Of a stretch of 64,000 nucleotides of DNA, positions 420 to 58,703 are shown piece by piece (the stretch's first letter is position 1; each line of letters opens with the position of its first letter). Both the position numbers and the translations under genes were made by a program. Origin of the DNA: Hormiphora californensis (Eukaryota > Animalia > Ctenophora); the NCBI GenBank assembly GCA_020137815.1, contig CM035359.1, forward strand, positions 3,348,001 through 3,412,000, given 5' to 3'. Below the pieces are notes generated by a model, which worked only from the letters and a program-made list of their open reading frames with translations, did not search any database and had not been told where the DNA came from.

Positions 420-3400
420 TTAAAACAATGAATTTAAGATGTTTGTACAACCTGTACAAACTTGTACACATGCCGGGTTACCTGCTATTAGATAGTAGAA
501 AATCCTGATGGCCTCATTGATTGTAGATACAGTCCATCCCTGGAGAGAGGAGAACAAATCCAACAGATTCATCAACTCCTGGTTATCATCTTCGGGGCTA
601 GAGGGGGCAGATTGTGTAGTAAAGAAATAGGTAGGCGTCCTCCCTTCTTTCGTTGTGTAAAGGTATGTTCCAGTAGGTGTGGTATCTTCCTGAGCTTCTT
701 CCTCTTCTTGTTCTTCTTCTTCATCTTCTTCTTCATCTTCCTCTACTTCTTCTTCCTCTTCTTCTTCCTCTTCCTCTTCCTCACCTTCCTCTACTTCCTC
801 TTCTTCTCCCTCTTCCTCTATACCGAGATGAGCGCTACCCTCACTGATTTCTGATTTGTTTTCAGCTAGGTCACCTTCCTCTTCCTCTTTAGTTATCTGT
901 GTAGGGGGCTGGGTGGTCTCCTCCCCACCATCCTCGGATCCCTCACCCTCAGTGGGACCAACCATCAGAGGAGGTGGTGTCTCCGTTGATCCTTCTAACG
1001 GCATCTTCAGGTGTTTCTTCCGTCCTCCCACACCACTCATTGGGCCCCCTTGAACACCCTCTCCCTCTAGATATCCAACCTGATAAAATAAGAAATAAAA
1101 ACGTAGTAAAAAAAATAAAATACGTAGTAAGAAAACATTTAATGATCTTATTAGTTTTGGAAAGTAAGTTTTTGAGAGAATGTCCTTTTACCTGACTTCC
1201 CCTCTGGAAATAAAATATCGATTTGGCGTGTTTCCTGGCCGGACTTCGCTTCTTGATGTTCAGGGCCTTGCCAATTTTAACTTTTCCATTGGGAAGACTC
1301 CTAAGGTAAAATAGAGAGCCAGGTCCGGAGCCTGTCCGGTGCCGTCTGATCTTGCTTTGGTGAAGACTTCGTTCTGAGAGGTTCAGTGTATCTTTTCCTG
1401 CGTCCTCGGCTGCAAGGCGATATAGGGGTGATATAGGGGTGATGGAGGGGTGATAGAGGGGTGATAGAAGGGTGATAGAGGGTGATGGAGGGGTGATAGA
1501 AGGGTGATAGAGGGTGATGGAGGGGTGATGGAGGGGTGATAAAGGGGTGATAAAGGGGTGATAAAGGGGTGATAGAGGGGTGATAGAGGGGTGATAGAGG
1601 GGTGATAGAGGGTGATAAAGGGGTGATAAAGGGGTGATAAAGGGGTGATAGAAGGGTGATGGAGGGGTGATGGAGGTGTGATAAATGGTTGATAAAGGGG
1701 TGATAGAGGGGTGATAGAGGGGTGATAGAGGCCCCCATAAAAAAGTCGCTTGGCAAATTCCCTCGTCGCTCGGCAATTGGTTCGGCAACAACAGGTGGTT
1801 TGCCGAGCCAGTCGCTCGGCTAATCAAGGAAGTCTCCGTGATTTCACCGCGTTCTTACAGAAAAAGCACATTTTTTCTGCACTTTGTATTTTTCAGCAGG
1901 AGATTTTGAAAAAAAGTGCTGAAAAAATGTACTTTTTCTGTAAGAACGCGGTGAAAACACGGCGACTTCCTTGATTAGCCGAGCGACTGGCTCGGCAAAC
2001 CACCTGTTGTTGCCGAACCAATTGCCGAGCGACGAGGGAATTTGCCAAGCGACTTTTTTATGGGGGGGGTGATAAAGGGGTGATAAAGGGGTGATAGAGG
2101 GGTGATAGAGATGTGATAAAGGGGTGATAAAGGGTGATAAAGGGGTAATAAAGGGGTGATAGAGGGGTTATAGAGGGGTGATGGAGGGGTGATAGAGGGG
2201 TGATAGAGGGTGATGGAGGGGTGATAGAGGGGTGATAAAGGGGTGATAGAGGGGTGACAAAGGGGTGATAGAGGGGTGATAAAGGGGTGATAGAGGGGTG
2301 ATGTGTAGTCGACGGCCGACGCGAGTAGGGAAGTAGAAGATGGGAACGGGCGGGAACGAAGTGAAGTGAAGTGAAGTGAAGTGAAGTGAAGTGAAGTGAA
2401 GTGAAGTGAAGTGAAGTGAAGTGAAGTGAAGTGAAGTGAAGTGAAGTGAAGTGAAGTGAAGTGAAGTGAAGTGAAGTGAAGTGAAGTGAAGTGAAGTGAA
2501 GTGAAGTGAAGTGAAGTGAAGTGAAGTGAAGTGAAGTGAAGTGAAGTGAAGTGAAGTGAAGTGAAGTGAAGTGAAGTGAAGTGAAGTGAAGTGAAGTGAA
2601 GTGAAGTGAAGTGAAGTGAAGTGAAGTGAAGTGACTCCCTCTAAGGGACGCGACCCAGAAGGGGCTTAATTCCATAAACGCCTGGTGTAAGACAGTAGGG
2701 CTCAAACTAAGTGCCCTGAAATCGCATGTAGTCATATTCACCCATCGAAAAAATGTGAAAATTGGAAACCCGATCAAAATTCAGGGTAACCCTATCAAAA
2801 TGTCCGAATCCACGAAGTTTCTAGGGATTACCCTTGACAGCAAACTGAACTGGAACGAGCACGTAAACAAACAAATAAAAAAAGCAAAAAATATCCTGAT
2901 GCAGTGCCGTAAAGTGGTGGGACCCACGTGGGGACTAAACCCTAAAACGGCCCTATGGATATACACTGCAATAGTGAGACCCACCTTATGCTACGGGGCA
3001 ATGGTCTGGGCTAATGCAATGCGAACCAAAACAAACAAAGAAAACATGATAAGGGTACAGAGGCTAGCACTCAAGATGGTAACTGGGGCCATGCCCTCGA
3101 CGCCATCAACAGCCCTAGACACAATCACAAACACCGCCCCGATCACCGACCATCTGAGGTACTGTGCAGCCAAAACTGCATACACCCTTATGGCAACGGG
3201 AGAATGGGAAGGGCCAATAAAATCAGACCTAAAGACCCCAAAAGTGTTCACTTCGCATGCCAACACGGTATCACGTGATCTCAGAACTCTGGAAGCAGAG
3301 GGCAGATGTCACGATCTCACAACCCCGGAACTCACCCTAGACAGGGAATTCTCGTTAGAGATCCCAGAAAGGGAGACGTTTTTGGAGGATGGAGACAAGT

Positions 3401-4969
3401 ACACGATAGTTGCACACACTGATGGGTCAAAAATTAACAACAATGCCGGTGCAGGATACATTATCCACTCTGGCGAAACAGAGCTAGCTCGAAATTCGTA
3501 TAACCTAGGCCCCGAAGGAACTGTCCCGGCGGCAGAAATGTATGCCATACAACAGACGGCTCAATATCTCCTGGATAGGGGAACAGCTAACGAGCGAATA
3601 CTCATAAACTGTGACAGTCAAGGGACAATAAAGACCCTAGACTCCACGACATGTAGATCAAAAACCACGATAAAGACTATCAAAAATCTGAACACCCTAG
3701 CCATATTCAACGATGTCATGATTAGATGGATCCCGGCCCATCAAGGGTACGATGGAAACGAAATAGCAGACATCTTGGCAAAAAGGGGTGCTCAGGAAAT
3801 CGAAGAAGTTACTCTCATACCAATTCCCAAAGCGGCAGCCTATGCAGCCCTCAGGGAGAAGGTTAAAACCGGACCCATCAAAAAAACCAAACATATGGAC
3901 ATGATGTGGACCGAAAGATATGAGAGACCTCTTCAAAAACTTAATAGAACAGACCTAAGGGCGGCGACACACCTACACACAGGGCACTGCCACCTTAACT
4001 ACCACATGAAAAAATTTAAAAAAGTCGAGACCACAACCTGTGCAGCATGTGGGATGGAAGACGAGACAATAAAGCATGTACTTACTGAATGCCCCGCCCT
4101 TTGGAAACTCCGACAGGAATCCTTTGACAGGCTGGGCCTCAGCATGTACGAAATTAGACACCATCAACCCCTTAGAAAAACGATCTCGTTCTATAAGAAG
4201 GCGATGGAGATACTTCACCCCCCTGAAACCACCCCTTAAAGGGAGGTTTCCCCTGTGACCTGGTATGGCACCAGCTCCCCAAGTCTCCTTGGGCCGAAGC
4301 AGTTGGCAACATACCAGCCACACCACCCAGGACGGGGAACGGGAGCCCCATGGCACCCACCCCTTACTGGCTAGTGCTCCGCACTAGCCAGCGTTCTCCC
4401 AGAAGAAGAAGAAGAAGAAGTGAAGTGAAGTGAAGTGAAGTGAAGTGAAGTGAAGTGAAGTGAAGTGAAGTGAAGTGAAGTGAAGTGAAGTGAAGTGAAG
4501 TGAAGTGAAGTGAAGTGAAGTGAAGTGAAGTGAAGTGAAGTGAAGTGAAGTGAAGTGAAGTGAAGTGAAGTGAAGTGACAAGGGACAAGGGACAAGGGAC
4601 AAGGGACAGGGGACAAGGGACAAGGGACATGAGGGGACAAGGGACAAGGGACAAGGGACAGGATCAATTAGGGTCAATTATGGGCCAATTAGGGACAATT
4701 AGGGACAAGGAAATTTTACCTATTCCTTCTGCTTCAGCACTTCGTTTATTCATTGTCAGGGGTGCTTCTCTTTCAAGTTCGCTTCTCATGAAGAAAATGG
4801 CATTATTGTCCGGCATCGACCTCTTTCCCAGTTTATCAGAACCGATTTGATCGGACCGTTTTGACCGGACAAGATATACCGTCTTACCACTATCAGCACG
4901 GTCTACTGGGGAGAAGATTGTTAGAAACAGAAAGGCCAGGACAATTAATTGTTTGGTGACGTAGTAGAC
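420..4969 (-). CDS. Secreted prohormone/neuropeptide-like or granin-like precursor, >=375 aa, 3 exons; start codon unresolved
   Basis: Exons 4969-4720, 1409-1192, 1079-420 join in frame through GT-AG introns (phases 1/1 and 0/0). Translation: VYYVTKQLIVLAFLFLTIFSPVDRADS GKTVYLVRSKR SDQIGSDKLGKR SMPDNNAIFFMRS...NKR...RRHR TGSGPGSLFYLRS...KKR SPARKHAKSIFYFQRG...GGRKK, then a poly-Glu tract and a Cys-containing C-terminus. An in-frame TGA at 4970-4972 means a small upstream exon is needed. Confidence 0.75.
1420..2302. repeat. 11-bp minisatellite (GGGGTGATAGA)n interrupted by the foldback element
   Basis: Visible directly in the sequence. Confidence 0.9.
1732..2066. mobile_element. 335-bp foldback (near-perfect palindrome) MITE-like element
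   Basis: Arms CCCCCATAAAAAAGTCGCTTGGCAAATTCCC... are complementary over ~150 bp; it sits inside the GGGGTGATAGA minisatellite. Confidence 0.75.
2358..2632. repeat. (GTGAA)n microsatellite, left of the retrotransposon
   Basis: Perfect pentamer array. Confidence 0.95.
2633..4420 (+). mobile_element. 5'-truncated non-LTR retrotransposon (I-group, Loa/R1-like) with RT C-terminus, RNase H and C-terminal zinc knuckle
   Basis: Frame open from ~2635 to 4239: KFLGITLDSKLNW, WGLNPK..IYTAIVRP, RNase H HTDGS...AEMYA...CDSQ...WIPAH..GNEIAD, and CAAC...H..C. 3' UTR hairpin at 4367-4391 and a (GAA)n tail; flanked by (GTGAA)n on both sides. Confidence 0.9.
4420..4710. repeat. (GTGAA)n followed by (GGGACAA)n
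   Basis: Visible directly in the sequence. Confidence 0.92.
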
Positions 4970-7285: not shown

Positions 7286-7720
7286 GTATGAGGGTTCAAG
7301 ATCTCAGGCCAGGTATAATTTGAACTGTTTGTCCCGTCGCAGAAACAGTACGAACAGTTCAATATAAAACTAGCCTAGAATTAGTATCATCGAGACCAAG
7401 TAATGTTCAGTAGCAGACTATAATAGCTGATAGGTTAAAAAAGGGGGCTCATAGTCATTTGAAAGTTTCAAAATAGTCCTTATTAAATGGTTTGAAAGTT
7501 CTGAAATAAATTAGGCCAGAGAAATTATAGAACAGGGTGTTGTTCTTGAATGATTTGAGGAATTACATAACCGGGTATAGTACAGGTGTATACAGTAGGG
7601 TAGATGTGAGGTGTTGGTGTACGAACAGACACTCTAAGAAGGATGATCCATGTATTAACAACGCTAGTTAATATCAACTAACACACGCATACATTTTATC
7701 TAGATTAAATCTGAAAACTA

Positions 7721-10700
7721 TCATTTATAGAACCCACCGTCCATCTCTAATAATCGATCGATCTCTTCGTTACTTAAATTACTGTCCAAAATATCTAACT
7801 CAGATTGTTTTGTCGACGGTGATTCCTTCTCCGCTGTTTCGTTCAGATTAGGGATCGATAAGGGGGGCATGATCTGCTGGTGACTCGCTGATGACGTCAT
7901 CTGCTGTTGTTGTGACGTCATTATATGTTGTTGCTGTTGTGCAGCCAGGTGGTGGTACATAGAGGGATGGTAGGGTTGGGAGGAAGCGGGCATGTAACGA
8001 CCGTTAGTGCCACCAGGCCCACCAGGTCCTGATGCTGAAGCGGCGGCCGGGGCGCACATCTGAGAGGGGAGGGAGAGTTAGCAGGAGGTTTGGAGGAAGA
8101 GAAAATAGAGGGAGAGTTAGCAGGGGTTTGGAGGGAGAGAAAAGAGAGAGGGAGAGTTTTTTATAGAATACGATTGAGCAATACAAGGCTAACTTTAGAG
8201 GGAACATTATCTGATAGAAGGTTGAACGGGTGGGGGGTTGAACTTACATTGGGACGTCCCATGTGGTCCATTGGATATCCTCCCGGCTCTGATTTAGTTA
8301 CGTGTCCCTCAGTTTTTATCTCTGGAGAAAGAGAGAGATAATGTTATCATAGAGAGAGAGAATAGCGACGTTATGTTAAGTTATGTAACAACTAACAAAG
8401 CTCGAAGAACGGGGTAATGAGAAACGTCACCATTATAGCGACCTTTATTGATCTACAAAAAACACTACCATGATATCACACCCACCGGCCACCTCACACT
8501 ATAACTCACTTTGTTGTTGCTGCTGTTGCTGGAACAATTGTTGCTGCTGTTGTAGTGCCATCTGTTGCTGTTGCTGCTGATAATACTGTTGGTGGATGAA
8601 GTGTTGTTGTTGCTGAGGGGTCATGGGTTGCCCTGCTCGCGCTGCTGCAGCCCACATTTGTTGCATCATCTGGAGAATGGGGAGGGGGGTTTTAGATCTT
8701 GGAGACGGGGAAAGGGGTGTTAGAAAAGGGGGAGGAGGACGGAGGAAGTTGTTAGAGTAGATGTTAGGGGAGGTGGAGGAGGGTGTTAGAAAACAGGTTA
8801 GAGAAGGGTTAGATCATGGAGACGGGGGAATAGAGGTGTTAGGGAAGGGTTAGAGAAGGCCGAAGGGGATCACTCACATGAGGATCGTTACTGTTTGGGT
8901 GTCGCTGTTGTTGCTGTTGCATCTGGTAATACATTTGCTGCATGTGTTGCTGTTGCTGCTGCTGGAACAGCATGTAGTTCCTCTGTTGCAACTGTTGCTG
9001 GGTTATCTGGTGTTGGTGGTCGGCGCTAATGTAGTGCCCACTGGCCGTCATGTACTGGGGACCAGCCGCCTGAGAGGGGAGGGTGTTAGAAAGGGTGGGA
9101 ACTGGGAACTGAGGGAAGGGAGCTGGAGAGTGGCGAGGGAATTTTAGAAGGGGTGTGAGTAACTTCAGTAGGGACGAATCTCTCAAGACAGGATTCACTT
9201 ATCAATTGTGGAAATAGTTATGGTGGAACTAGAGTCAAATCATTTAGAGGCGTCGCTAGTAAGACCGGTGAGAGTGCTACAGAAATATATAGATAAGATC
9301 AACAGAAAGGAATCTTGCGGAGAGTGCCCTATCCAATATATTGTGGAGAGCTATACAACAGTAACAAAAGAAACGATCAATTTGAAAAAGAAACGATCAA
9401 TTTCTTGAAAAATTGCTCGTCTCATTTGTTAGATATCAGATCAACATGCACATGCTGGAAACATGCTCTGAGTGTAATGTGTAATGTACGGTATTTCGAG
9501 TGTTGCAGGTAGCATTTCGAGCAGCTCCAGCAGCAGGGGGGACGCGTTGTTGCTGTCCTGTTGTCTGTCTTGGTTTCTGTCTCCCTGCATTAACCTGCTG
9601 CGGTCCTCCACCGGGTGGGTGGGTCTGAGGTGGTGGACCTCCTCCTGGTCCCGGGGGGTGTGCCAGTTGGGTCCTCTGGTATTCCAAATCGGCTTGTTTC
9701 TGTCGCTTTTCAGACTGAAAAGAGGGAGGGGTTTTAGTTGGTGAGACACCGACTAGTAATTACCCAGTAACCATGGTAACCATTCAGTAACCATGGTAAC
9801 CATTCAGTTACCATGGCTACCATTCAGTAACCATGGCACTACTAAATTACCTGTCTGGCATGTTCCTTCAACTTTTTGTTCAGGATCTGTTTGCTAATTT
9901 TCTGATCCTCCGGGGGAGCTGCCGATGGAGGAGGCTGGGGAGGGGGTCCCGTTCTGAATCCTCCACTTGCTCCTATTTTGGAGAAAACTTGGGTTAGATA
10001 ATAACTCCATATCTTACCTTCCCTAGTATTTGGTAGGTGCTATACAATGCCACAATTCCAATTCTTGAGTTTCAGACCAAACTAATTGTGATTTGTGTGC
10101 TACCAACTTACCCATAGGTGTAGGTCCATAACCAGGTGACACTGTCACGTTGGGTACTTGTGGTCGAGATAACATGGTATCAGCACAAGATGTGCTCATC
10201 TTGGACCCTGTGTAGTGAACAATTTGAGAAATAGTATCTTTAGTGTAGAGATTATAATTAGTAGGAGTGTTAATAAGTAGGGATGCTAATTAGGCTACAG
10301 ATCTAGGAGAGTGTACTATATGATTATCATTTTTCAAGATCTGAATATGAGGGCTACCATTGTAACCATTGGTAACCATGGTAACCATGGTAACCAGGGT
10401 GGGGGAAGGTTCGTTACCTGATTGCGCCATCTGAAGGTGAGGGGATGAGGGCTGAAGGTTAGGGAACTGGGAGGATGGAATTCCTGAATTCTTTAATCCA
10501 GCAACACTCATGTGGTAGGACGTTCCTGAAAATTGTGTGCCCGTTTAGGAAAAGGGAGAGCGAAAGGGGGGGGGTGAGACAGAGAGAGGAAACGAGAGTG
10601 AAAGGAAGGGGAAACGAGAGTGAAAGGAAGAGGGAGGTAGAGGGTCCATAGATTGCCCTATATTCATAAAATGGATTCTAGAATTGAATTATAAAATTAT

Positions 10701-12516
10701 ATTCTAAAATTATCTGCGACATAGTTTCTAAAATTATCTGCCATATGCAGGAGTGAGCTCTTCAGGGTGACCAAGCGGTCTGGAACAAAACGCTGCCCGC
10801 GTGATCACGAAAACAGCAGGCGTTTTTAAACCGCTGTCGATGACAACACTTCCACATACCTTAGCAGGTAACCATGGTAACCATTGTTACTACATTGGTA
10901 ACCTTTGTTACTGCATTGGTAACCATGGTAACCATTGTTACTGCATTGGTAACCATGGTAACCATGGTAACTACTAACTAATTACCTGGCTGCATTGGTA
11001 CTGGTTGTCCATTGCTCATCATCAGAATGCCACTTGGCTGAGGACCGCCCATTCCCGGTGGAAGGGTCGGAACCCTGCCGGGTGGGTTCTGGGTATAAGG
11101 AGGGGGCGGTCGAGGTGAACCCCCCGTTGTAGGGATAGATGTCACAACCGCAGCAGGGGTAACTGTCTCGGGAGCTGCTGCTGTAGAGGTAGCTGTGGTA
11201 GCGGAGATGGTGATATTGGGTGGAGGTACCTGGGGGAGTGGGGGTGTTAGCCGCAAAGTTATTGTGTAGAATGGGGGAGTGGGGGTGTTACTTGTTAGCC
11301 GCAAAGTTATTGTGCGGAATGGGGGAGTGGGGGTGTTACTTGTTAGCCGCAAAGTTATTGTGCGGAATGGGGGAGTGGGGGTGTTAGCCGCAAAGTTATT
11401 GTGCGGAATGGGGGTACCTGAGGGAGTGGGGGTGTTAGCCGCAAAGTTATTGTGCGGAATGGGGGTACCTGAGGGAGTGGGGGTGTTAGCCGCAAAGTTA
11501 TTGTGCGGAATGGGGGTGTTACGCTGGCAAGAAAATATATACGATTGAGCTAGTTCCATACTAATTTGATTTCAATCGATATGATCCCTAAAATCTGCAC
11601 CTTGTTGAGTGGGGAAGGTTGCAGTCGAGGTTTTATATCCCCATTCTGGGGAGGTATACAGGGAGCCTGTGATTGAGGGGGTACACCGCCAACACCAACT
11701 GGCGGCTTCTGATCCTCCCCTTTGTCCCAGTCCTCTCCTCCGCCAAGAAATGACAAATCTAAGAAGAAATTGCATAATTAATTGATGAATTAATAAATTA
11801 ATTAGCTTTGTATTCAAAGACTAGTTAAACTACCTCCGTTTTCCATGATGAGGTCACAGTTTGTGAATATATCATCAAGATCATCGCCGTTCACGTCTTC
11901 AATACCATAATTAGGCTTCTTAGACGCACTTTCCAGCTTTGTAGGTGACGGGGACCTCTTGGCCTAGAAAAAGAGAGAAGGTGGTGGATTAGAGTGGGGG
12001 GGGGGGTAAAGAAGTAGCACCGCAAATACATGGCACCTGGCCAGCTGTGTGTCTTGCAAGTGATTAGTCACTAAGCACCTTGTGCAAAGAAGACTTTTTA
12101 TTTTGTCTTTGTTGCAAACTGGTATGTGGTCTAACATTGAGTAACTTATTGAGTTTTCTAAAATTCCCCGAGGACCGAGGTGGGCCCTAAGATCATGTTT
12201 TTGTCTTCTGACAAGACAAACTACAAAGTACTAAAATCTACAAGGTATCCGACAAGTAAAGATCTTTCTACGCTCAAAAGATCGAGTCTCTTTTTTATCT
12301 CACCAGAGGGTGGAGCTTTAACCAAGACAATCATTGTTTTTGTATTCCTTTTATGTACATTTAATTAATTAATTAATTAATTGATTTTATGACAGATATT
12401 CTTTACCCTTCCTATTGACACCATGAGTGTAAAATGAACAATGATTTATTGTGAATTGCGGCGTGAGTTTGTGTACTCTGTGGTAGAGACAGAAAAATAG
12501 AGAGAGAGCGAGAGAG

Positions 12517-12554
<38 letters not shown>

Positions 12555-14829
12555 GGAGAGAGAGATAGAGAGATTCTTTGGGTACAGGCTGTACCGTACA
12601 GCCAATGCTAGCTAACTAAATCACACTACAGACACCCACACGTTGTGTCTGTGTGTAGGGCGAGATACACAATATAACAAACAATATATTCGAACAATCT
12701 ACCATTAGATTGTATATATTAGAACAATCTACCAATATACAAGAATGGGAGAGTGAATAGTGGTATGAGAATAACCGATATTTATGAGGGGGTAGGAGAA
12801 GGTAGGGCAAATTATAGGGAGATATAAGTTAGAACATTATCGATTTTTAGGGGGTAGTACAGGGTAAGGTGGGGTTGTAGAAAGAATTATTGGGGAAAAT
12901 AATTACCGATATCTTAGGCTTCACATCTGCCTGTCCGAGGTCTTTGATGGCAGGTTTCTGCTCCATCATTGTTGTTGGTTGCATCTTTACATGTTGCACT
13001 GGTCCGAGCTGAGGGGGGAGTGGGATTAGAATTATAGGAGCTGAGGGAGAGGGAATTGTTGGGACTGGGGAGAGAGGGGTGGGGTTGTCGGTTGCATCTT
13101 TACATGTTGAACTGGTCCGAGCTGAGGGGGGAGTGGGGATTAGAAGTATAGGAGCTGAGGGAATTGTTGGGACTGGGGAGAGAGGGGTGGGGTTGTCGGT
13201 TGCATCTTTACATGTTGCACTGGCCCGAGCTGAGGGGGGAGTGGGGAAAGAGGGTGGGGAGAGAGGACTAAAATAAAATGCATCCAACAATACACAGACA
13301 AGTGATCGCAGACAATTAGTGATATATATCGCACCAACTTGGGGGGGGGGGGATATTTTTCACCTGTTGGTTCAGTTGGTGAAGATGGGGAGGGGGTTGT
13401 TGTTGTTGATGGGCCTGTTGGTGAGGTGGTAACTGCTGACCCTGTAATTAATTATTTAATGTTAATTGGGAGATGTAGTTGTAACGATATATGATCCAAT
13501 ATTATTGGAAGCCCATAAATGGCAACAATCACGTATATCAATAACATGCCCAAATATGGTCATTATATCCATATTTGGACACACACTAGTTACCTGAGGT
13601 GGTTTCTGGTGTAACTGTTGTTGGGGAATGATATGTCTCTGTTGGAGCTGATGTGGGTTCTGTTGTTGTTGAGCTTGGAGATGGGGTTGCTGCTGAGGGT
13701 TTCCTGCTTGTGATAAATGAGGTTGTTGAGGATTTCCCGGGGGTTGTAAATGAGGTTGTTGGGGATTCCCCGGGGCTTGTAAATGAGGTTGTTGAGGATT
13801 TCCCGGGGCTTGCAAATGAGGTTGTTGGGGATTTCCCGGGGCTTGTAAATGAGGTTGTTGAGGATTGCCTTGTTGCTGGAGGTGAGGTTGTGGTAGATGG
13901 GGTTGTTGTTGTTGTTGTTGTTGTTGAGGATTTCCTGGGATGCCCCCTGGATAATAACCTGGGGGGAAAATAATTGGTAAAAACTATGATATCTCTCTAT
14001 CTATCTCACTTTCTTTCTATATAATGTCTCTCTCTCTCTCTCTCCCTCTCTCTCCCTAGTTAAAGTAACGATCTTACCTGGGTGGTGCTGTTGATACTGT
14101 TGAGGGGTCTGTTGCTGTTGGGCTTGTTGCTGTTCCGGGTGGTGGACGTTATAGTACCCTCCCTAAATGAGAGTATAATTAGTACAGTTATGTGTTAACT
14201 AATTATTGTATTGTACTTCTGCAATACAGTACAATCATTAGTACAGTGGGTTAATAACAGTAATGAAGGGTGTGAACAGGGCAAGAGTGGCCAAAATCCC
14301 CCCAAGCTCCGCTGGATCCACCAGCCCTAGGGTATGGGCGGGCAGTGGTCACACATTACTGTGTGCAGAATGGAACACGAATTTTCAACACCACAGGCGC
14401 CGAAAAAAACGGTCTAAGAAGTAAAGAAACGCAAAAAATAAGGGGCACAGTAAAAGAAGGAGGTACGAACATTAGGGATTCACAGTCGCTGAAGTTGTTT
14501 TGTTAGGCGTGGTTTCAATGACAACTTTTTTATTTGATTCTTCCCCTCTCTCTCTATCTATCTTTCGTTGTTTTCCGGCTCTGAACATCTCTCTCTCTCT
14601 CTCTCTTTGCTCTTTCTCTCTAGTTTCTCTTTCTCTCGCATGTCTCTTTTTCTTTCTCTCTCTTTTTCCCTCTAAATCTAAATTGTCCTTTTTTTTAATC
14701 AAACCCCACTGTCCCTTACAATAATTCTAAAGACGAAAGAAATTAAAATGTAAATTTCAATGTATCAAATTTACGCTCGAAACTAAACCAAATCTTACAT
14801 CAGCAAAAAAGAGACACCCGTGCAGACAC

Positions 14830-15302: not shown

Positions 15303-16259
15303 GGGGAGGAGAAGAGAGACGTTGCAACAGGTGTAACTGTATGTATTTCTTTCTCTCACATATGCTATCTCTCTCCCCATCTTTACCTCCTTATTTGTTT
15401 CTCTCACTAACAAATCACCAGGGAAAGGATTCTAAGGAATAACTCTTTTAAATTATCTGATCAAAGATAGATTATCCGAACTATGATATTTAGCACGCAG
15501 AATTCATGAAAAGACTTCCTCTCTTTAGTGATATAGTGGGTAAAGGGTCGCCGCCGAGAAGTGTCAGAGACACAGGTAAGAGTCGTTCATTTGTTCAAGC
15601 CTTACGGTTTCACGAGGAAACTAAGAATGAATAACATGGATTATAAAAAGAACAGTGAACATTAGCATGTTATGATCATGATTCAAAGATAGGACAAGTT
15701 AAAAGCGATCAGGGGGAACTGGGAATAAGCAGCTGGGACAAGAAGAGAGAACTTAACGAAGACAGTTTAAACCACTGTTAACCGGTAATAAACATATCCC
15801 CTAATAAGGATTTAGGTCTCTCACTCACACTATACTCATACTATAGCCATGGAGAAATTTCAATTAACGGGAGAAAGAGGCATCTCGTACTATATTCAAA
15901 TGATACCATTTTCACAATTTAGTTATCAGTTTCCCGAGACACCGGATTTAAAGATAAAAGACAGAAGGTGGTGCTTGTAGCAGAGCTGAGAAGACCGAAG
16001 AAGCGACAACCGATAAGGTTTCACGTGTGCGCGCGGTGAGGCTGAGCCGCGCAAAGATCGTGCTCACAATCCCCACTTTCATAGTTTTACACATCCCGCC
16101 AAGTCCTCTCTCTTACTCTCCCTCCCCTTTCTCTATTTTCTCCTTGTCTCTGTTGAAGTGTCTTCCCTCAATCGCCCTCTCTCTCTCAACCTCGAAAGCG
16201 CATCGTATGCAAAAGGAGAGATGAATAGACAGATACATAAATCGAGAGGGAGAGAAAAA

Positions 16260-16770: not shown

Positions 16771-19615
16771 GTGTATGCATGTAGTATTAACTACACACAC
16801 ACACACATACACACACACATAAGATAGGACAGAGAGAGGGTATATGCCACTACTCTATTATTACACTGAAGAGACAAATGAACGCTAGTGCTTATATTAC
16901 AAGATAACTACCTTAAAGTAAAACATATAGAAGTAAAACTTAAGAAGTAAAATAAGAAGTTAAGAATGGGATAACTAAAACCCACGTGTAACAAAATTAG
17001 GACTAATTTTGGACAACAGAGAAGAGTCAAAGAGTTAACCACGGGACTCTGTTTTTCTTTGTTTGTTTTAGAATTAACAAATCTAGACTCCAAAGGGGGG
17101 GGGGGCCTGCCGCAAGAATCTCATGCCTCATTGGTGATTTTCAGGGTAGCTGGGATTTTTGAGATTTTCGATTTTTGGCTAAAAAACGTGGGATTTTTGA
17201 GATTTTTGAGGCAAATTTGCGATTTTTCGGGGAAAACCCCGCAAATTTTTCTCAAAAATCTCATAGAAAGGAAAATTTCCATTTGAAAATTTGGAATAGA
17301 AACAATCCTTGTGTTTTTCTACCAAAAATCAAAATTCTGGATAGAAATTTTCCTTGTGTTCTAGTACAAAAGTTAATGTGAAGCTAAAACATGAAATCTG
17401 CCTATTTAAATTACTAAACTGCTATTATGATTCAGTTTTAAGCTAAAACATATGTCGAAAAACTGAGTATTTGGCAGCCAAAATTGTGCCAATTTAACAC
17501 AAAAATCTCAAAAATCTCAAACGTAATTGAGCAAATTTTCCCAAAAATCTCAAAAATCTCATCGGCCGAAAAGAGGGTAGCTGAGATTTTTGCGGCAGGC
17601 CCCCCCCCTCCAAATCAATATGTACTCTAGCCAGACCCAATGACAGTCCCCCTATTCGGGGGGGGGGGGGGGGGATAAGGTCAGGGCGGGTTTGGCTTTT
17701 TTGACCCTAATTATTTAGGTAAAAAAGCGGCCCAAAAAACGCCAAAAAGGGCCAAAAAAGTCAGATTTATTGTACCTGGAAGTTGTTTGGCACCATGAAC
17801 GCCTCAGGCGGGAAGTCCTTAGTTTTAGAGTGCATTTGTGGAGGAGGTTTCTTCTGTTTGTTGCTTAGAATCCTCTGATGTAGACTCTGTGGAGGGGAGA
17901 GGGAGTTAGTCTATATTGATCATTTTGATACAAGGGGAGAGGGAGTTAGTTTATATTGATCATTTTGATACAAGCCCTAGTAAACGCGAGAGAGAGTGAG
18001 AGAGATGGAGAGGGGATGGGGAGGAGAACGATAGATGCAACAGGTGTAACTGTATGTATTTCTTTCTCGCACATACGCTATCTCTCTCGAGAGCTCTCTC
18101 TCCCCATCTTTACCTCCGTATTTGTTTCTCTCACTAACAAATTACCAGGAGGAACGATTCTAAAGAAGAAATATTTTAAATTATCGGATCAGAGAAAGAG
18201 TTAATTCATACTGTTCATTTTGATACAAGGGGAGAGGGTACTGGGTAGCATGAACCTTTTCGAGGTATCAAATATTATGATGACGTCATCAAATACAGTA
18301 TGGGGAAATGACGTCATCTCACACAAATACAGTATGGGGAAATGACGTCATCTCACATAAATACAGTATGGGGAAATGACGTCATCTCACACAAATACAG
18401 TATGGGGAAATGACGTCATCTCACACAAATACAGTATGGGGAAATGACGTCATCTCACACAAATACAGTATGGGGAAATAACATCATCTCACACAAATAC
18501 AGTATGGTGAAATGACGTCATCTCACACAAATACAGTATGGGGAAATGACGTCATCTCACACAAATACAGTATGGGGAAATGATATCATCTCACACAAAT
18601 ACAGTATGGGGAAATGACGTCATCTCACACAAATACAGTATGGGGAAATGACGTCATCTCACACAAATACAGTATGGGGAAATGACGTCATCTCACACAA
18701 ATACAGTATGGGGAAATGACGTCATCTCACACAAATACAGTATGGGGAAATGACGTCATCTCACACAAATACAGTATGGGGAAATGACGTCATCTCACAC
18801 AAATACAGTATGGGGAAATGACGTCATCTCACACAAATACAGTATGGGGAAATGACGTCATCTCACACAAATACAGTATGGGGAAATGACGTCATCTCAC
18901 ACAAATACAGTATGGGGAAATGACGTCATCTCACACAAATACAGTATGGGGAAATGACGTCATCTCACACAAATACAGTATGGGGAAATGACGTCATCTC
19001 ACACAAATACAGTATGGGGAAATGACGTCATCTCACACAAATACAGTATGGGGAAATGACGTCATCTCACACAAATACAGTATGGGGAAATGACGTCATC
19101 TCACACAAATACAGTATGGGGAAATGACGTCATCTCACACAAATACAGTATGGGAAAATGACGTCATCTCACACAAATACAGTGTCGGGAAATGACGTCA
19201 TCTCACACAAATACAGTATGGGGAAATGACGTCATCTCACACAAATACAGTATGGGGAAATGACGTCATCTCACACAAATACAGTATGGGGAAATGACGT
19301 CATCTCACACAAATACAGTATGGGGAAATGACATCATCTCATACAAGTTTGTAATTGTGATGATAATGAATCGTCTATAATTTGTTTAGCTTGTATTGAG
19401 AGGGCCACCGAGAATCGAGATGTCAAGATTGTGTGAAATTCAGGGGTAAAAGAGATAACAATTACCTTTTATTTCACTGTCATTTTCAATCTGACATGAT
19501 TTATTGACTGACATCATTGACAGCTGAGATCGAATGATCTCAACTCCAAATATGATGTGGTGAGGTAAACAGTGTTCCTTGCATGGAGGTGCGAGATGAA
19601 GAGAGAGATAGAGAG

Positions 19616-19652
<37 letters not shown>

Positions 19653-20545
19653 TAGGGAGAGAGAGAGAGAAAGATGGATATGTCTTTCTAGCATATACGA
19701 CATACATAGGCGAAGAAAATAGTAAGGGATAATAAACTAATAAACTCACTTTACTAGAGGAAAAAGATCAGCCCGGGGCTGATAACGCTATAATTCAGTC
19801 TTAAACTTACTCAATCTTAATAACTTTGCGGTGGAGGGAAACTCACCTTACTCTGATCTTCCTCAAGTCTAACTTGCTTGTTCTCGTACTTTTCATATCT
19901 GGAGAGATGGGTTATTATATTAGTAACGAGGTCGCAACCAGACATTTTAGGGGGCGGCTAAACAAGCTACAATTTGCTGGAACTTTCCCAACTATTTTGG
20001 GATAGAAAGTGTTATGTTTCTTTCTCAGTTTCACTTTCTCTTTCTCTTTCTGTTTCACTTTCTCTTTCTGTTTTACTTTCACTTTCTCTTTCTGTTTTAC
20101 TTTCTCTTTCTCTTTCTCTTTCTCTTTCTCTTTCTCTTTCTCTTTCTCTTTCTCTTTCTCTTTCTCTTTCTCTTTCTCTTTCTCTTTCTCTTTCTCTTTC
20201 TCTTTCTCTTTCTCTTTCTCTTTCTCTTTCTCTTTCTGTTTTACTTTCACTTTCTCTTTCTGTTTTACTTTCTCTTTCTCTTTCTGTTTCACTTTCTCTT
20301 TCTGCTTTACTTTCACTTTCGTCTTTTCATTCTCCCTTTTTCTTAAAATTTCACGCCGTCATTTGATTTGGTATCAGTGACGATTGTCACATTGTGTAGT
20401 ACAGTCAGTATTTCTAGCACTGTGTAATCACTGTCTGTCCGTCACTGATTTTACAGACAAACATACATCTTAGGCATAGGTACAAATCTCATGTCACGTT
20501 AGTTTCCGGTAGGGTAAGAAAGTGAGAGACGCATAATTAAAAGGA

Positions 20546-20625
<80 letters not shown>

Positions 20626-21056
20626 TCGAGAGGGAGAGAACTATAGATAGGGTAAGTTTTAAGTTTTAGTCGTGTACAATTGACATCGGATAGAAATACC
20701 CAAAAAATAAAATAGAAAACCGGGAGTAGTAACCGGGAGTAAGACAAATAAATTATCTTCTATTTGCTATATTCTGTTTTTCTACTGTGACTGTTAGTCT
20801 TCTAAGTGTGCCCGAAACAATGTTAAATAAAAGCAGGAACCAAACGAATCAGGAAATACTGGTCCCTGATTGGCTGATAACCAGTCACATGACCTAAATA
20901 ACGAGTTGTTTGTTTACGATTGGTTGTTTACTTGTTTCGGTCGGTTCCTGGTTAAAAGTTACATTACCTGAGTCTAGATTCAAGATGCTGCGGTTGAAGG
21001 TACTCTCTGAAGTGACTATCTAGGGGAGATTCCACAGCTGGGGCACTTTTCATCAT
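7721..21056 (-). CDS. Mastermind-like (MAML) Gln/Pro-rich transcriptional co-activator candidate, ~870-910 aa, 18 coding exons
   Basis: Exons 21056-20968, 19898-19847, 17886-17776, 14162-14078, 13958-13594, 13441-13364, 13008-12907, 11963-11834, 11758-11601, 11229-10986, 10525-10418, 10207-10112, 9972-9851, 9714-9595 (or 9490), 9069-8878, 8669-8510, 8321-8248, 8059-7721. All junctions are GT-AG with matching phase. N-terminal QHLESRLRYEKYENKQVRLEEDQSKSLHQRILSNKQKK resembles the Mastermind helix; central acidic patch EDVNGDDLDDIF, polyQ, and C-terminal acidic ELDILDSNLSNEEIDRLLE. Gene structure is more certain than family identity. Confidence 0.72.
17095..17607. mobile_element. Non-autonomous TIR element with G-run termini
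   Basis: GGG..GCCTGCCGCAAGAATCTCA / TGAGATTTTTGCGGCAGGC..CCC, with direct repeat CTCCAAA on both flanks. Confidence 0.75.
18280..19345. repeat. 34-bp minisatellite, ~31 copies, each with ATGACGTCAT
   Basis: Unit TGGGGAAATGACGTCATCTCACACAAATACAGTA, highly homogeneous, no spacers. Confidence 0.95.
20030..20320. repeat. (TTTCTC)n microsatellite
   Basis: Visible directly in the sequence. Confidence 0.9.
20834..20950. mobile_element. hAT-type MITE (family B)
   Basis: Same body as 7177-7285 in the opposite orientation, 17 bp from a donor site of the Mastermind-like gene. Confidence 0.8.
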
Positions 21057-21558
21057 GTTTAACCTGCCATTAACCTATAATAAGATTTTATAAGTTATTT
21101 TCTAGCTCTCCATTTGTTTGGTGGGGCATGGAGAAAGAGGGTCGAACAAGGTAAGATGTTGCGATTTAAATCATCTTGTGGACGGTAAGGGTTGCCTAGC
21201 TCGACCCCCTTTTCGCGAGGAAAGTTAGAACAAGGTAAGAGAGGGTTGACTGTCGAACAAGATAGCAGTAAGACTTATTTACTAATTTATTGTTTGGATA
21301 ACGAAGATGATTTAAACTCAAATTGACGCTACGAAACGGCGTACTTGGTAACACGAACTCGAGTGCTGTAATTTGGTAGTAAGTTTAAACTTTGGAAGGG
21401 CTCTTGTGGTCATGTTTCTGACAGTTATTCAGGTCACGTAATCGCTATTGAACTATGGATCGATAAAGGCCGACAAATCAGGTATCGAGGCCGCTAATTA
21501 GGAATTCATATCGCGAAACGACATGTGATTCGAGAGGATTAGTGATATTTACCATATA

Positions 21559-21724
21559 CAGTCGGACCCCGATTTACCGGGCCCTGATTTACCGGAACCT
21601 CGATTTACCGGGAGGGTAAACCGATATAGAAAAGTAACGGTATTTGACCCAGATATACCGGGCACACCGATTAACCGGGCAAAACACTTTCCCCCGAGCA
21701 TCCCGGTAAATCGGGGTCCGACTG
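21559..21724. mobile_element. Family A MITE
   Basis: CAGTCGGACCCCGATTTACCGGG TIRs with TA on both sides. Confidence 0.85.
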
Positions 21725-22542
21725 TAATGTGTTTTCCTGATTCCTATTATCTTTACAGCTACGGCATTTGCACTTGCACTAACAAGAGTTACTTGAATAT
21801 CCAGTTCCTGAATACCCAGTACCTGAATACCCTTCATTGGTACTTTCAAGAGATCCAGTAAATTCAGACGGTCACTTTCGGTTAGGTTTTTATTTCAAGT
21901 GCTTTATCAAGGGTAAACAATTACGGTAATTGTTTAACCTTGATAATTGAATTGGTAATTGAATTGGTAATTGAATTGGTAATTGAATTACCAAAGGGAT
22001 CAGTGATGCCAATCGGTGTTGGGGTTAGTGAATTTTCAAGAAAAAGGAAAGATCATACATATGAAATACAGTCTCCCTTGCCAGGTTAGACTGTTTTTTC
22101 GCGTACAAAACAAAGTCTCCCCTGAATATTATTCTGCTAGCTGCTTAAATAGTTAAGTGAGTTCTTCCCCGGAGAGTGGTGGAGTTGTCAATTGTCGAAT
22201 CATTTTCAATGCCTTCTGAGAGGTCCTTGGAAACTGTTACGTAAAAGCGATTTCCGCGATAAATACCATTCATTGAATGGGTGGGGGTGCATGTCAAGTG
22301 ACAATAACGCCTTTTCCAATCTTTCAAAGTACCACTTGAATGTGCATCATAGAAATACGCTTCCAATGAAAATCATATCCTGTGCCCAGACCTCTTTTAC
22401 AAATGTAAAGGAGGGTTCGAACATAACAGCAGTTTCGTTGAGAGTGAGGTACGGAATATACGATTTCCAATAGGTGAGTCAACAAGTTGTTGGTAAGGCG
22501 GGATTCACAGGGTGTTTGTTCAGAGTCAAGAACCCATGATCT

Positions 22543-22791
22543 GAGGGGCCTCGGAAATGTTCAAGTCATGCACATTCAAGTCACGCCCACCAATCACAGT
22601 GCAGAACAGCTATTGTGATCTTATAGATGGTGGCGGGGGTGATATAACATCGTCATGATTTACAGAACCTCCTCTACTAACATGTTAAAGTTGCAGCCTT
22701 CTTGATGGTGGGAGGGGTAGGTGAGGAGGCTGCATTGGGACTATTATCTACTGCACGTGTTGTAGCACTACTTGCATTTCCGAGGCCCCTC
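22543..22791. mobile_element. AT-TSD MITE (family C), degenerate
   Basis: Termini GAGG(G/C)(G/C)CCTCGGAAATG match the copies at 63253 and 63481. Confidence 0.7.
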
Positions 22792-23234
22792 ATAACAGAA
22801 ATAATAAGGGGAGCTGTTATAGGTAGTGGTGGTGAAAACAGCCACCGTAGATTCACAGGAGATTAGCTTATATGGGAATCCGGCTTGTAACATTTCAAAG
22901 CTTCGTCCTACCTCATTCTTCACAATGAAAACTAACTTGTCGACAATATGTTTTGGTTACTGATCACATTTACCACATTCACTCTCTTCATTCTTCAGGT
23001 TCCCTGCGTCTGGAAAGGTGTTCACTTTTTGACGCAGTATGGGAACTGGGAAGAGAGATGACCTCTCTTCCCAGTTCCCATACCTCTCAGAGGTCCTCAG
23101 TCCGCTCAAACGAACACTCGTAGCCTGCACTCGATTAAATGCAATGTAAATTATGCATTTAGTATAGTATACCACTCAATAATTTTCGATCACACGGTTG
23201 TGCCGGCAGACGGCAGCCGTCTGCAAACCGTGAG

Positions 23235-24385
23235 GATTTACAGATTTACAAGATTTACAAATAAGTTTCAGTTACAATACACTATCATAACAACGCACTC
23301 AGCAAAAGCATCCGCGTGGGCATTGATGTGGCATGGAAAGGTGAAGGAGTGAGGTGAGGGATGAAACCTAACTACCTTCCGTGAGTAGGGCCACAAGAGA
23401 GTTGTCCCGGGGGCTGGAGTATCCTCTTACTGGTGGTAGATCAGGGATAGTCGCAAGGAACTCCCCAAGCTTAATCTTCACGATCTCGACAGATTTGGCA
23501 AGTCGAACTTCAGCGGGCATTCTGTTAAATAACTGTGCTGCCCGGATACCAAATGAAGATTCACGTAGAGTCTGGACGGATTTCTGTGCTGGATTAATCA
23601 TCCGTGGTATCCTAGCTTTTGGCCCGTGACGAAGATGGTCGTAGAAGGATATCCCGGTACTGTTCGGTGCTAGTCCAACGTATACTTTCCACAAGTGGAT
23701 TATCATGTATCTCTCGCGTCTCCGTTGAAGAGATAAAATTCCCAGCTGTGTCAGCCTTTCCCAGTAGTTAAGGCCTTGACATTCCGCAATTCTCCTGGTA
23801 AAGAATCTCTGTATAGTTTCGATCTTGATAACATCTCCGATCTTGGTTGGAGACCATAAGGGAGAACAGTATTCAAGTTTGGGTCTTAGCAGTGACTTGA
23901 GGAGAGTTACCAGTCTTCTCGGAGCGGTCTCTGAACACCCCAAGAATCCATCCTGCTAGACGTTTTGCTTCACCGGTGATGGTGTTAATGTGGGTAGACC
24001 ATGATCCATCGTTTGTCATGTTGACTCCGAGATCTCTCACACATGTAGTAGGTTCGATAGCTTCGCCTGATGGGGTGTAATACCTGTAATACTCCGAGTT
24101 GAAGGGCATCTCCCGGAGTTCTCTGGTCTTGTTGAGGGTGTAGTTTAGGACTTCAAACTTCTGCTCATGCAGCAGCATATTGTTTCTTCTCGACCATTCC
24201 GCCATCTGTTCCAGATTTTCTTGTAGGGCATCCCTGTCTTCCAATCCAGTAATTGCTTGGCGGCTTTTGGTGTCGTCCGCGAAGGTAAGCGTACCTCCAG
24301 TCGTCCGGGATGCCAAGTCACACACAATATGATGAATAGAAGGGGTCCAAGCACAGATCCCTGGATGACACTACTGGTGACACTC
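23235..24385 (-). mobile_element. Degenerate 5'-truncated CR1/L2-type LINE (RT C-terminal half)
   Basis: QGSVLGPLLF, FADDTK, VRDLGV, RPKLEYCSPLWSP and LSLQRRRER spread over frameshifted ORFs; short tandem (GATTTACA) tail at ~23235-23260. Confidence 0.88.
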
Positions 24386-24484
24386 TCGGCCCTGGAGGAT
24401 GTGGAAATTTTGGAGGCTTTTTTGTTTGAAAAACGCTACAGACCCCTTTAACGGGGCGGGGCACGATGGGACTGTAGCACATAC

Positions 24485-25034
24485 CGGAATCCGGACTTAG
24501 GACTACAGAGCCTGAAAGTTGGTCTCGATGGCCAGCAGAAAATCTTGGCAAACGTTGCTGGCCCCCGATAGCGCGGGATAAGGCAGCGCTTTTCAACAGA
24601 AAATCTTGAAAAGAAAAACTGAACTCAGCTCCGACTCAGACTTTTTTCAGATCATTTTATAAATTGAACGCGCGCGACTGCGCTGCGCTGTTGCGTGTTT
24701 TGCGCGTAATCCACCGAAAGCCGCGCATTATCGCGGTCGCGTCGTTTGAATTTTAACAGAATTTAACGCTGCCTCAGCCGATCAACTTCGCTTCACTTTT
24801 TAACTTCATCACCACTGTCGTTGGCTCCTAAGCTAACTTTATTGAAATATTTCTTGCTGTGCTTACTGCTGAATTGACTACTGAACTAAATTTTGTATCA
24901 TATCCGGTTATTCCTTTTACCATATCCAGTCTACACCGATTACACAAACTTCCCAGCAATGTTAGGGCGGTGTGATGTCTGTTGATCGGTAGTGTACGTT
25001 GTTCTTTGGACAAAGGGTCCGTTAAATACTTTAT
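24485..25034. promoter_or_regulatory. Putative bidirectional promoter between the Mastermind-like gene and TTBK
   Basis: Head-to-head genes, a CpG/GCGC-rich stretch at ~24540-24790, and a candidate non-coding first-exon donor (CCG|gtatgt, minus strand) at 24485/24484. Confidence 0.5.

Positions 25035-48955
<23,921 letters not shown>

Positions 48956-55554: not shown

Positions 55555-58703
<3,149 letters not shown>

Follow-up and report, generated by a model that had tools for sequence, protein, structure and literature searches.

The window, by which we mean the whole 64,000-nucleotide stretch of DNA analysed here, contains a minus-strand gene for which we obtained an 18-exon model encoding an 874-amino acid, glutamine- and proline-rich protein (18.6% Q, 14.4% P). 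As Table 1 shows, the model opens with three small predicted exons that join in frame to one N-terminal peptide. All 17 introns of the gene (17/17) are bordered by GT-AG, and the reading frame is closed. The sequence-only reading had assembled a Mastermind-like helix from these three exons, and their coordinates are confirmed in the gene model, where the splice itself is a prediction. The 5′ end of exon 1 is uncertain, with a possible in-frame acceptor at 21074 (score 5.8). The ctenophore origin of the DNA, which that reading had entertained, is supported by AK2 in the window, where 98 of 100 residues are identical to Pleurobrachia bachei. AK2 and a TTBK-like gene are the neighbours of the Mastermind-like gene. 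A GPCR-like reading of the open reading frame at 15958-16224 was not supported.

Table 1. Exons of the Mastermind-like gene model (positions are those of the window)
Exon	Position	Strand	Splice sites and content
1	21056-20968	-	89 nt, aa 1-30; starts ATG, donor gtaatg (donor score 10.3); corresponds, in degenerate form, to the first part of the Mastermind helix; last codon is the split Arg of RYE
2	19898-19847	-	52 nt, aa 30-47; acceptor ..tctctccag, donor gtgagt; middle of the Mastermind-like helix (YE, LE)
3	17886-17776	-	111 nt, aa 48-84; acceptor ..cctccacag, donor gtac; end of the helix with LHQR and K-x-K, then Pro-rich linker
4	14078..14162	-	Q-rich
5	13594..13958	-	Q/P-rich; 11-aa tandem repeat (33 bp x 4.6)
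6	13364..13441	-	Q/P/H-rich
7	12907..13008	-	
8	11834..11963	-	aa 295-338: basic patch, then central acidic patch
9	11601..11758	-	end of central acidic patch, then Pro-rich
10	10986..11229	-	P/T-rich
11	10418..10525	-	
12	10112..10207	-	
13	9851..9972	-	first half of second Pro/Gly-free basic stretch (aa 561-599)
14	9595..9714	-	second half of basic stretch aa 561-599, then G/P-rich
15	8878..9069	-	polyQ
16	8510..8669	-	polyQ
17	8248..8321	-	
18	7721..8059	-	aa 763-874 and stop: Q-rich, then acidic/hydrophobic C-terminus

With exon 1 closing in phase 2 and exon 3 opening in phase 0, the frame calls for an exon between them. By a splice score for which only exons 4-18 served as the training set, exon 2 ranks first among 71 frame-keeping candidates (19.9), and it also ranks first among them by MAML score (67). 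This signal is absent from any single exon, the separate exons scoring 16, 24, and 35. Were the three-exon splice wrong, with exon 2 skipped or other exons used, the helix would be missing from the real protein. We found no RNA showing the exon 1-3 junctions for this gene, and intron 2 contains one further phase-0 candidate of fair quality (112 nt at 19577-19466, with a splice score of 15.0); its use, however, shifts the frame, and the phases of the flanking exons and the top score of exon 2 likewise stand against a wrong splice, which we consider very improbable. When the sequencing runs X1 and X2 were compared with positions 7600-14300, the matches fell mostly on polyQ and repeat pieces; one X2 contig matches exon 18 at 41 of 50 bases, a weak hint. 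No read or contig from the sequencing runs matched exon 2.

The spliced N-terminus aligns without gaps to a fish MAML1, L010, with 15 of 43 residues identical and a Smith-Waterman score of 67. L010 is a true MamL-1 member (PF09596, 98 bits, E 3.5e-28) that also matches human MAML1 (PDB 2F8X chain M); because the motif used to retrieve it was derived from the shared residues, its score is biased upward, and the comparison set is vertebrate MAML1 only. The human MAML1 stretch given in the earlier reading agrees with 2F8X chain M, and a by-eye count against that chain reproduces the ungapped 12/38 identities reported there (H, RYE, LE, LHQR, and K-x-K). In 20,000 shuffles per scheme, the score of 67 was never equalled when the full sequence or the helix only was shuffled; it was equalled twice by heptad-class shuffles and three times by shuffles of 5-residue blocks. 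The reversed sequence scores 24 against L010, and the best other window of the same protein scores 31. In phmmer, L010 against residues 1-70 gives 18.7 bits (E 0.018 at Z 177,635), and the best of 4,504 local decoy pieces reaches 7.9 bits. With L010 as query against 177,635 PDB sequences at E <= 10, only human MAML1 and one chain with a MAML1 piece are returned. Finally, the match sits N-terminally, within a 38-residue stretch that is free of Pro and Gly.

Searches with individual exons and with the whole protein behaved differently from those with the spliced N-terminus. Single-exon frames give no BLASTP alignment to L010, and none of nine single-exon frames of the gene matched Pfam, a set of unspliced inputs that includes the three N-terminal exons and both acidic regions. 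The exon-2 and exon-3 frames each returned 0 matches in a PDB sequence search and no usable match in the ESM Atlas. The full-length protein scores -1.5 bits overall in phmmer, with a domain E of 2.5, and such signal loss may be behind earlier misses. Indeed, with the motif split over three short exons and polyQ bias swamping the full-length signal, the gene would fail a BLAST cut-off of 1e-5 as applied in the 2025 survey.

The protein could instead have no relation to Mastermind and be some other polyQ/Pro-rich nuclear co-activator or scaffold, with a charged N-terminal helix that is MAML1-like by chance. Many co-activators are Q/P-rich and have acidic ends, and this reading is also favored by the absence of the Arg-rich third of the helix, of an orthologue, and of Pfam support. 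Had the implicit search spanned thousands of families, a shuffle P between 1e-5 and 5e-4 would be less than overwhelming, and a search that wide could meet the 2-3 events per 20,000 seen with the shuffles that keep periodicity. On the other hand, no unrelated chain among the 177,635 PDB sequences appears even at E 10, as compared with E 0.018 for the N-terminus; the ungapped match spans two splice junctions and uses the top exon of 71; and both its position and the layout of the protein are consistent with Mastermind. Taken together, we regard a chance likeness as unlikely, though as a rival to be taken seriously. We also considered SS18/SSXT, a Q/P/G/Y-rich co-activator in which the N-terminal SNH helix closes with a hydrophobic Y-L-A motif; in the unspliced exon-3 frame, no motif of this kind follows LH, and Pfam gives no match.

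The rest of the protein had been described in the sequence-only reading as having a central acidic patch, polyQ, and an acidic C-terminus, and charge and composition counts bear this out. The central patch carries a net charge of -9 at residues 314-340, the most acidic 25-residue window beginning at residue 314-316, and the extreme C-terminus forms a second acidic stretch (net -7 at 847-873). In MAML1, the acidic domains lie at 263-276 and 990-1016 of 1016 residues (PMC7787167). The ctenophore protein thus agrees by composition only with the Mastermind-type layout of central and C-terminal acidic domains with a polyglutamine tail (PMC7787167).

The main departure from Mastermind concerns the first third of the helix. 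Whichever of the two registers is used, exon 1 scores no more than 1-5 against the ERLRRRIE segment of L010. Residues 6-29 contain two K/R and four D/E, and prolines at positions 6, 11, and 22 interrupt this first part. Residues 23-60, by comparison, are the 38 residues without Pro or Gly and have good helix propensity. Shifted by one residue, V8, L12, F16, and Y19 still have the hydrophobic spacing of V, L, I, and F in L010. Among 138 combinations with upstream exons out to 29.6 kb, none restores the Arg-rich segment; the best alternative exon scores 76 versus 67, but it has weak acceptors and its gain is a single junction residue, and it was rejected. An AlphaFold fold of the exon-2 frame was uninformative, as half of the input is intron. 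The proposal of a Mastermind helix therefore stands in part: the resemblance to MAML1 beats shuffles and real-protein backgrounds, whereas the Arg-rich first third has no counterpart. Because that third is missing, we file the gene as a Mastermind-like variant and not as a canonical member.

In structures from 2006, the Arg-rich part of the helix reportedly packs on the Notch ANK repeats and the distal part on the CSL NTD. This division bears on a further possibility, namely that the gene is a true Mastermind homologue whose retained distal helix makes direct contact with CSL or another partner, so that it acts as a constitutive or Notch-independent co-activator. Conservation limited to the stretch from the His before RYE through K-x-K, with the Arg-rich part lost, would fit such a role, as would the lack of a true Delta ligand in ctenophores (Foster et al., 10.1101/2025.09.30.679519) and the ability of MAML1 to co-activate other factors (PMC7787167). 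However, the surface bound by human MAML is a composite of ANK and CSL (PMC9825171; 10.1101/2023.09.15.557970), RAM-like and ANK regions are retained in ctenophore Notch, and, given the spacing of V8, L12, F16, and Y19, the first segment may yet fit into the cleft. We therefore hold Notch independence to be improbable.

Orthologues were sought with several approaches. Neither the exon-3 frame nor the C-terminal 55 residues found a homologue in word-index and metagenome-contig searches, and those 55 residues gave 0 matches against 1.84 billion representatives, though that collection includes Mnemiopsis and Bolinopsis proteins. Exact sequence look-ups found 0 of 3 and 0 of 4. A motif scan of metagenome contigs yielded 11 loci, of which ten are unrelated to the model and one is a vertebrate MAML1, with no ctenophore locus among them; viral and prokaryote contigs contributed no further Mastermind loci.

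From the sequence data, we conclude that the gene is probably a divergent ctenophore Mastermind that acts as a CSL co-activator. The predicted spliced helix (about residues 23-60) would dock, along with the Notch intracellular domain, on DNA-bound CSL/Su(H), and the long glutamine/proline-rich tail with its two acidic patches would recruit transcriptional co-activators. By analogy with known Mastermind, the helix would lie across the ANK-CTD cleft and the CSL NTD (PMC9825171), and the tail may recruit p300 and CDK8 (PMC9825171, PMC7787167). Because a proline-interrupted segment replaces the Arg-rich first third, the ctenophore helix is probably shorter than that of bilaterian Mastermind and makes a weaker or different reading of the Notch ANK surface. 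In Mnemiopsis, Notch has ANK repeats and a PhiWPhiP motif whose W and P are conserved, and Su(H) is present and shares expression domains with Notch (Foster et al., 10.1101/2025.09.30.679519).

Surveys have scored MAML absent in ctenophores, sponges, and placozoans (PMC12166595, PMC2770060), in agreement with the earlier statement that Mastermind is often scored absent in early-branching animals. Its absence outside cnidarians and bilaterians forms part of the argument on canonical Notch signalling at the base of the animals (PMC2770060, PMC4335385, PMC12166595), and with a named ctenophore candidate that question can be tested directly. A Mastermind in a ctenophore would make the co-activator older than the cnidarian-bilaterian ancestor. 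A broader scenario, which we regard as evenly poised, is that ctenophores carry a Mastermind that keeps only the distal, CSL-gripping two-thirds of the helix, and that the CSL-Notch-Mastermind activator was in place before ctenophores split from all other animals. Sponges and placozoans would then have lost it or hide equally divergent copies, and strict Notch dependence of co-activator recruitment would have come with the Arg-rich, Notch-reading segment, either gained later or lost in ctenophores.

Among known systems, vertebrate MAML1 (PF09596; 2F8X chain M) shares with the ctenophore protein the distal two-thirds of the helix without gaps (12/38 identities by eye with human, 14/39 with fish), the N-terminal position of the domain, the long Q/P-rich tail, and the central and terminal acidic patches. 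It differs in that the ctenophore Arg-rich first third is unconserved and proline-interrupted, that the ctenophore domain is split by two introns whereas that of L010 lies in one exon, that no similarity was detected in the ctenophore acidic regions (Pfam, single-exon frames), and that the ctenophore protein has 874 residues versus 1016. The L010 search of the 177,635 PDB sequences did not match the C. elegans Mastermind chain of 2FO1. That chain is named in PMC9825171. Nematostella Mastermind, the earliest-branching accepted member, is described as only weakly conserved with its bilaterian homologues (PMC4335385), but standard searches find it (PMC2770060). Mastermind in general is described as prone to escaping similarity searches (PMC2770060). 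The C. elegans protein SEL-8/LAG-3 is described as similar in function to Drosophila Mam but distinct from it in structure (PMC7787167). Its ternary complex has been shown genetically and structurally, whereas the ctenophore protein is known here from sequence alone. As a distinct yet functional co-activator, SEL-8/LAG-3 provides a precedent for a Mastermind that similarity searches miss.

The three small exons claimed from the sequence alone were recovered on the minus strand with the same lengths, and the frame is kept across them (see the table). Together with 15 more exons and a stop at 7721, they encode a predicted protein of 874 aa; GT-AG is present at 17 of 17 introns, and the frame is closed with its sole stop terminal. 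The 5′ end of the model is uncertain, with an in-frame acceptor (score 5.8) 18 nt upstream of the ATG. With exon 1 closing in phase 2 and exon 3 opening in phase 0, a middle exon is required. Exon 2 has the top splice-site score among 71 frame-keeping AG..GT candidates (19.9, runner-up 14.3) with matrices trained on exons 4–18 alone. The MAML1 score, which is independent of the splice score, also places exon 2 first of the 71 (67), and the runner-up (56) is a sub-piece of it. Beside these two rankings, an incorrect splice of exons 1–3 is very improbable.

Features in and around the Mastermind-like gene (window coordinates)
Feature	Position	Strand	Description
Exon 1	21056-20968	-	89 nt
Exon 2	19898-19847	-	52 nt
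Exon 3	17886-17776	-	111 nt
Exon with long poly-Glu run	about 460-1080	-	part of next gene downstream of Mastermind-like gene
Kinase gene	about 30500-45500	+	multi-exon; transcribed away from Mastermind-like gene
LINE-like element	30675-33041	+	open reverse transcriptase frame of 788 aa (RVT_1 E 2.8e-27); inside kinase gene
Open frame	53249-53989	+	245 aa; hydrophobic Cys-containing segment, acidic tail; Pfam: no match
Adenylate kinase 2 (AK2) gene	55555-58703	-	seven exons, 235 aa

The layout attributed to the protein, a central acidic patch, polyQ and an acidic C-terminus, is borne out: Gln makes up 18.6% and Pro 14.4%, acidity in 25-residue windows peaks at starts 314–316 (net −9), and C-terminal windows reach net −7. 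Just one further likely helix lies outside polyQ: a second 39-residue Pro/Gly-free stretch, basic, at aa 561–599 (9595–9972, exons 13 and 14), which scores 31 against MAML1; Pfam on either exon singly gave no match. Tandem duplications lie at or just upstream of four acceptors, at 12971–13247 (exon 7), 11231–11516 (exon 10), 17893–17974 (exon 3) and 8069–8158 (exon 18); one of them, 108 bp long, repeats the first part of exon 7, and the donor is reached by the last copy only. Intron 2 holds a minisatellite at 18290–19346 (34-bp unit, 31 copies, 98% matches). The neighboring kinase gene, presumably of the tau-tubulin kinase type by its motifs, gave no Pfam match on one exon frame and is useful for synteny searches. 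Decayed LINE-like pieces occur at 23368–24635 and about 2700–4200, and a 100-base N gap near 29 kb.

The AK2 gene identifies the organism as a ctenophore, as the sequence-only reading had allowed, and places it at Pleurobrachia bachei or very near it. One AK2 exon is 100% identical to EukProt EP00116_Pleurobrachia_bachei_P007772. In a comparison of 9 of the 91 stored proteins, the spliced product matches the P. bachei model at 98/100 residues over the common part, Mnemiopsis leidyi KAL5271011.1 at 191/235 and Bolinopsis microptera XP_063689493.1 at 189/235, against 124/215 for fish AK2. The public P. bachei model P0001 has about 100 residues in common with it; both its ends are unrelated, and one matches a repeat recurring in the window.

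The Mastermind reference used here is vertebrate MAML1 only. Our reference locus, L010, came from a nine-codon spaced motif scan of metagenome contigs that gave 11 loci, 10 of them unrelated. It represents the opening exon of a vertebrate MAML1 (Pfam MamL-1, PF09596, 98 bits; human MAML1, PDB 2F8X chain M, E 2.8e-27), which we read as fish; L010:3-323 is this exon on contig MDSQ01112015.1, presumably host DNA. The human stretch given in the sequence-only reading agrees with 2F8X chain M, and the same 12/38 identities are counted by eye against it; that first comparison implicitly ranged over an uncounted set of protein families. Residues 17–60 align ungapped with L010 at 15/43 identities, all but one within the 38-residue Pro/Gly-free stretch 23–60, and the score of 67 is biased upward because L010 was fetched using the shared residues. 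This score was reached by 0/20,000 shuffles of the whole 70 aa (maximum 64), 0/20,000 of the helix only, 2/20,000 within heptad classes and 3/20,000 within 5-residue blocks; the reversed N-terminus scores 24 and the next-best window of the protein 31. At Z 177,635, phmmer gives 18.7 bits (E 0.018) for residues 1–70 and 15.8 bits (E 0.15) for residues 1–150. The top local decoy among 4,504 pieces, itself a motif-selected locus, reaches 7.9 bits, and of 177,635 PDB sequences searched with the same 68-aa MAML1 query just two, the human MAML1 chain and another carrying a MAML1 piece, fall at E ≤ 10.

The claimed likeness to the Mastermind helix stands in its distal part, where the match beats shuffles and decoys, but not in the Arg-rich first third (ERLRRRIE in L010), against which exon 1 scores just 1–5 in either register. 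This third is reportedly the ANK-facing part in the 2006 structures. Residues 6–29 hold 2 basic and 4 acidic residues, with prolines at 6, 11 and 22; hydrophobic spacing alone is kept (V8, L12, F16 and Y19 correspond to V, L, I and F of L010 after a one-residue shift). No upstream exon supplying the segment was found within 21100–29600 (138 combinations). As the Arg-rich segment was looked for and is missing, we file the protein as a Mastermind-like variant, not a canonical member. Word-index searches and metagenome contig scans found no orthologue, and full phmmer with the C-terminal 55 aa gave 0 matches among 1.84 billion representatives, though the collection includes proteins of Mnemiopsis and Bolinopsis; these negatives are weak evidence because the queries were short single exons. 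That an unrelated polyQ protein resembles Mastermind by chance, with which the missing third would agree and the shuffles and decoys would not, is unlikely though appreciable. On sequence grounds, the gene is probably a true Mastermind homologue.

Mastermind has often been scored absent in early-branching animals, as the sequence-only reading stated. The excerpts available report MAML absent in ctenophores (4 taxa sampled), sponges, placozoans, hydrozoans and myxozoans by BLAST at E 1e-5 (PMC12166595); restrict Mastermind to eumetazoans, with no conclusion from ctenophore ESTs and a warning that divergence may hide it (PMC2770060); and place its origin in the cnidarian–bilaterian ancestor (PMC4335385). 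Mnemiopsis has Notch and Su(H) (Foster et al. 2025, 10.1101/2025.09.30.679519), and a search of the text available from that source returned no mention of Mastermind. No ctenophore Mastermind report was found by title and abstract start in a search that did not reach most of the subscription literature or the genome papers on Mnemiopsis and Pleurobrachia, which may be relevant. Other literature, also seen as excerpts, includes 10.1101/2023.09.15.557970, PMC8166818, PMC10970066, PMC4557054, PMC6507302, PMC2991368 and PMC5037638. Routine searches would miss the gene, perhaps because its signal drops in the context of the 874-aa protein and is absent in single exons: phmmer with the entire protein scores −1.5 bits and does not pass the default filter, BLASTP of single exons against L010 gave no alignment, and Pfam on single exons gave no match. 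What we describe is a real predicted gene with statistically supported, partial Mastermind likeness, in a lineage reported without Mastermind.

In solved complexes, according to the excerpts available, the Mastermind helix is long and kinked and binds both the ANK–CTD surface and the CSL NTD (PMC9825171), and the tail recruits p300 and CycC:CDK8 (PMC7787167, PMC9825171). The MAML1 tail carries acidic domains at 263–276 and 990–1016 plus polyglutamine (PMC7787167); another source labels the charges of the domains the opposite way (PMC4520489). We somewhat favor a role in which the ctenophore protein would act as a CSL co-activator, its shortened helix altering the contact with Notch ANK. A Mastermind homologue independent of Notch, which the missing first third might suit, is improbable. 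Compared with MAML1, the ctenophore predicted protein is missing the Arg-rich first third, whereas the distal putative helix (23–60) is alike and the tail layout of acidic patches and polyQ is common to both.
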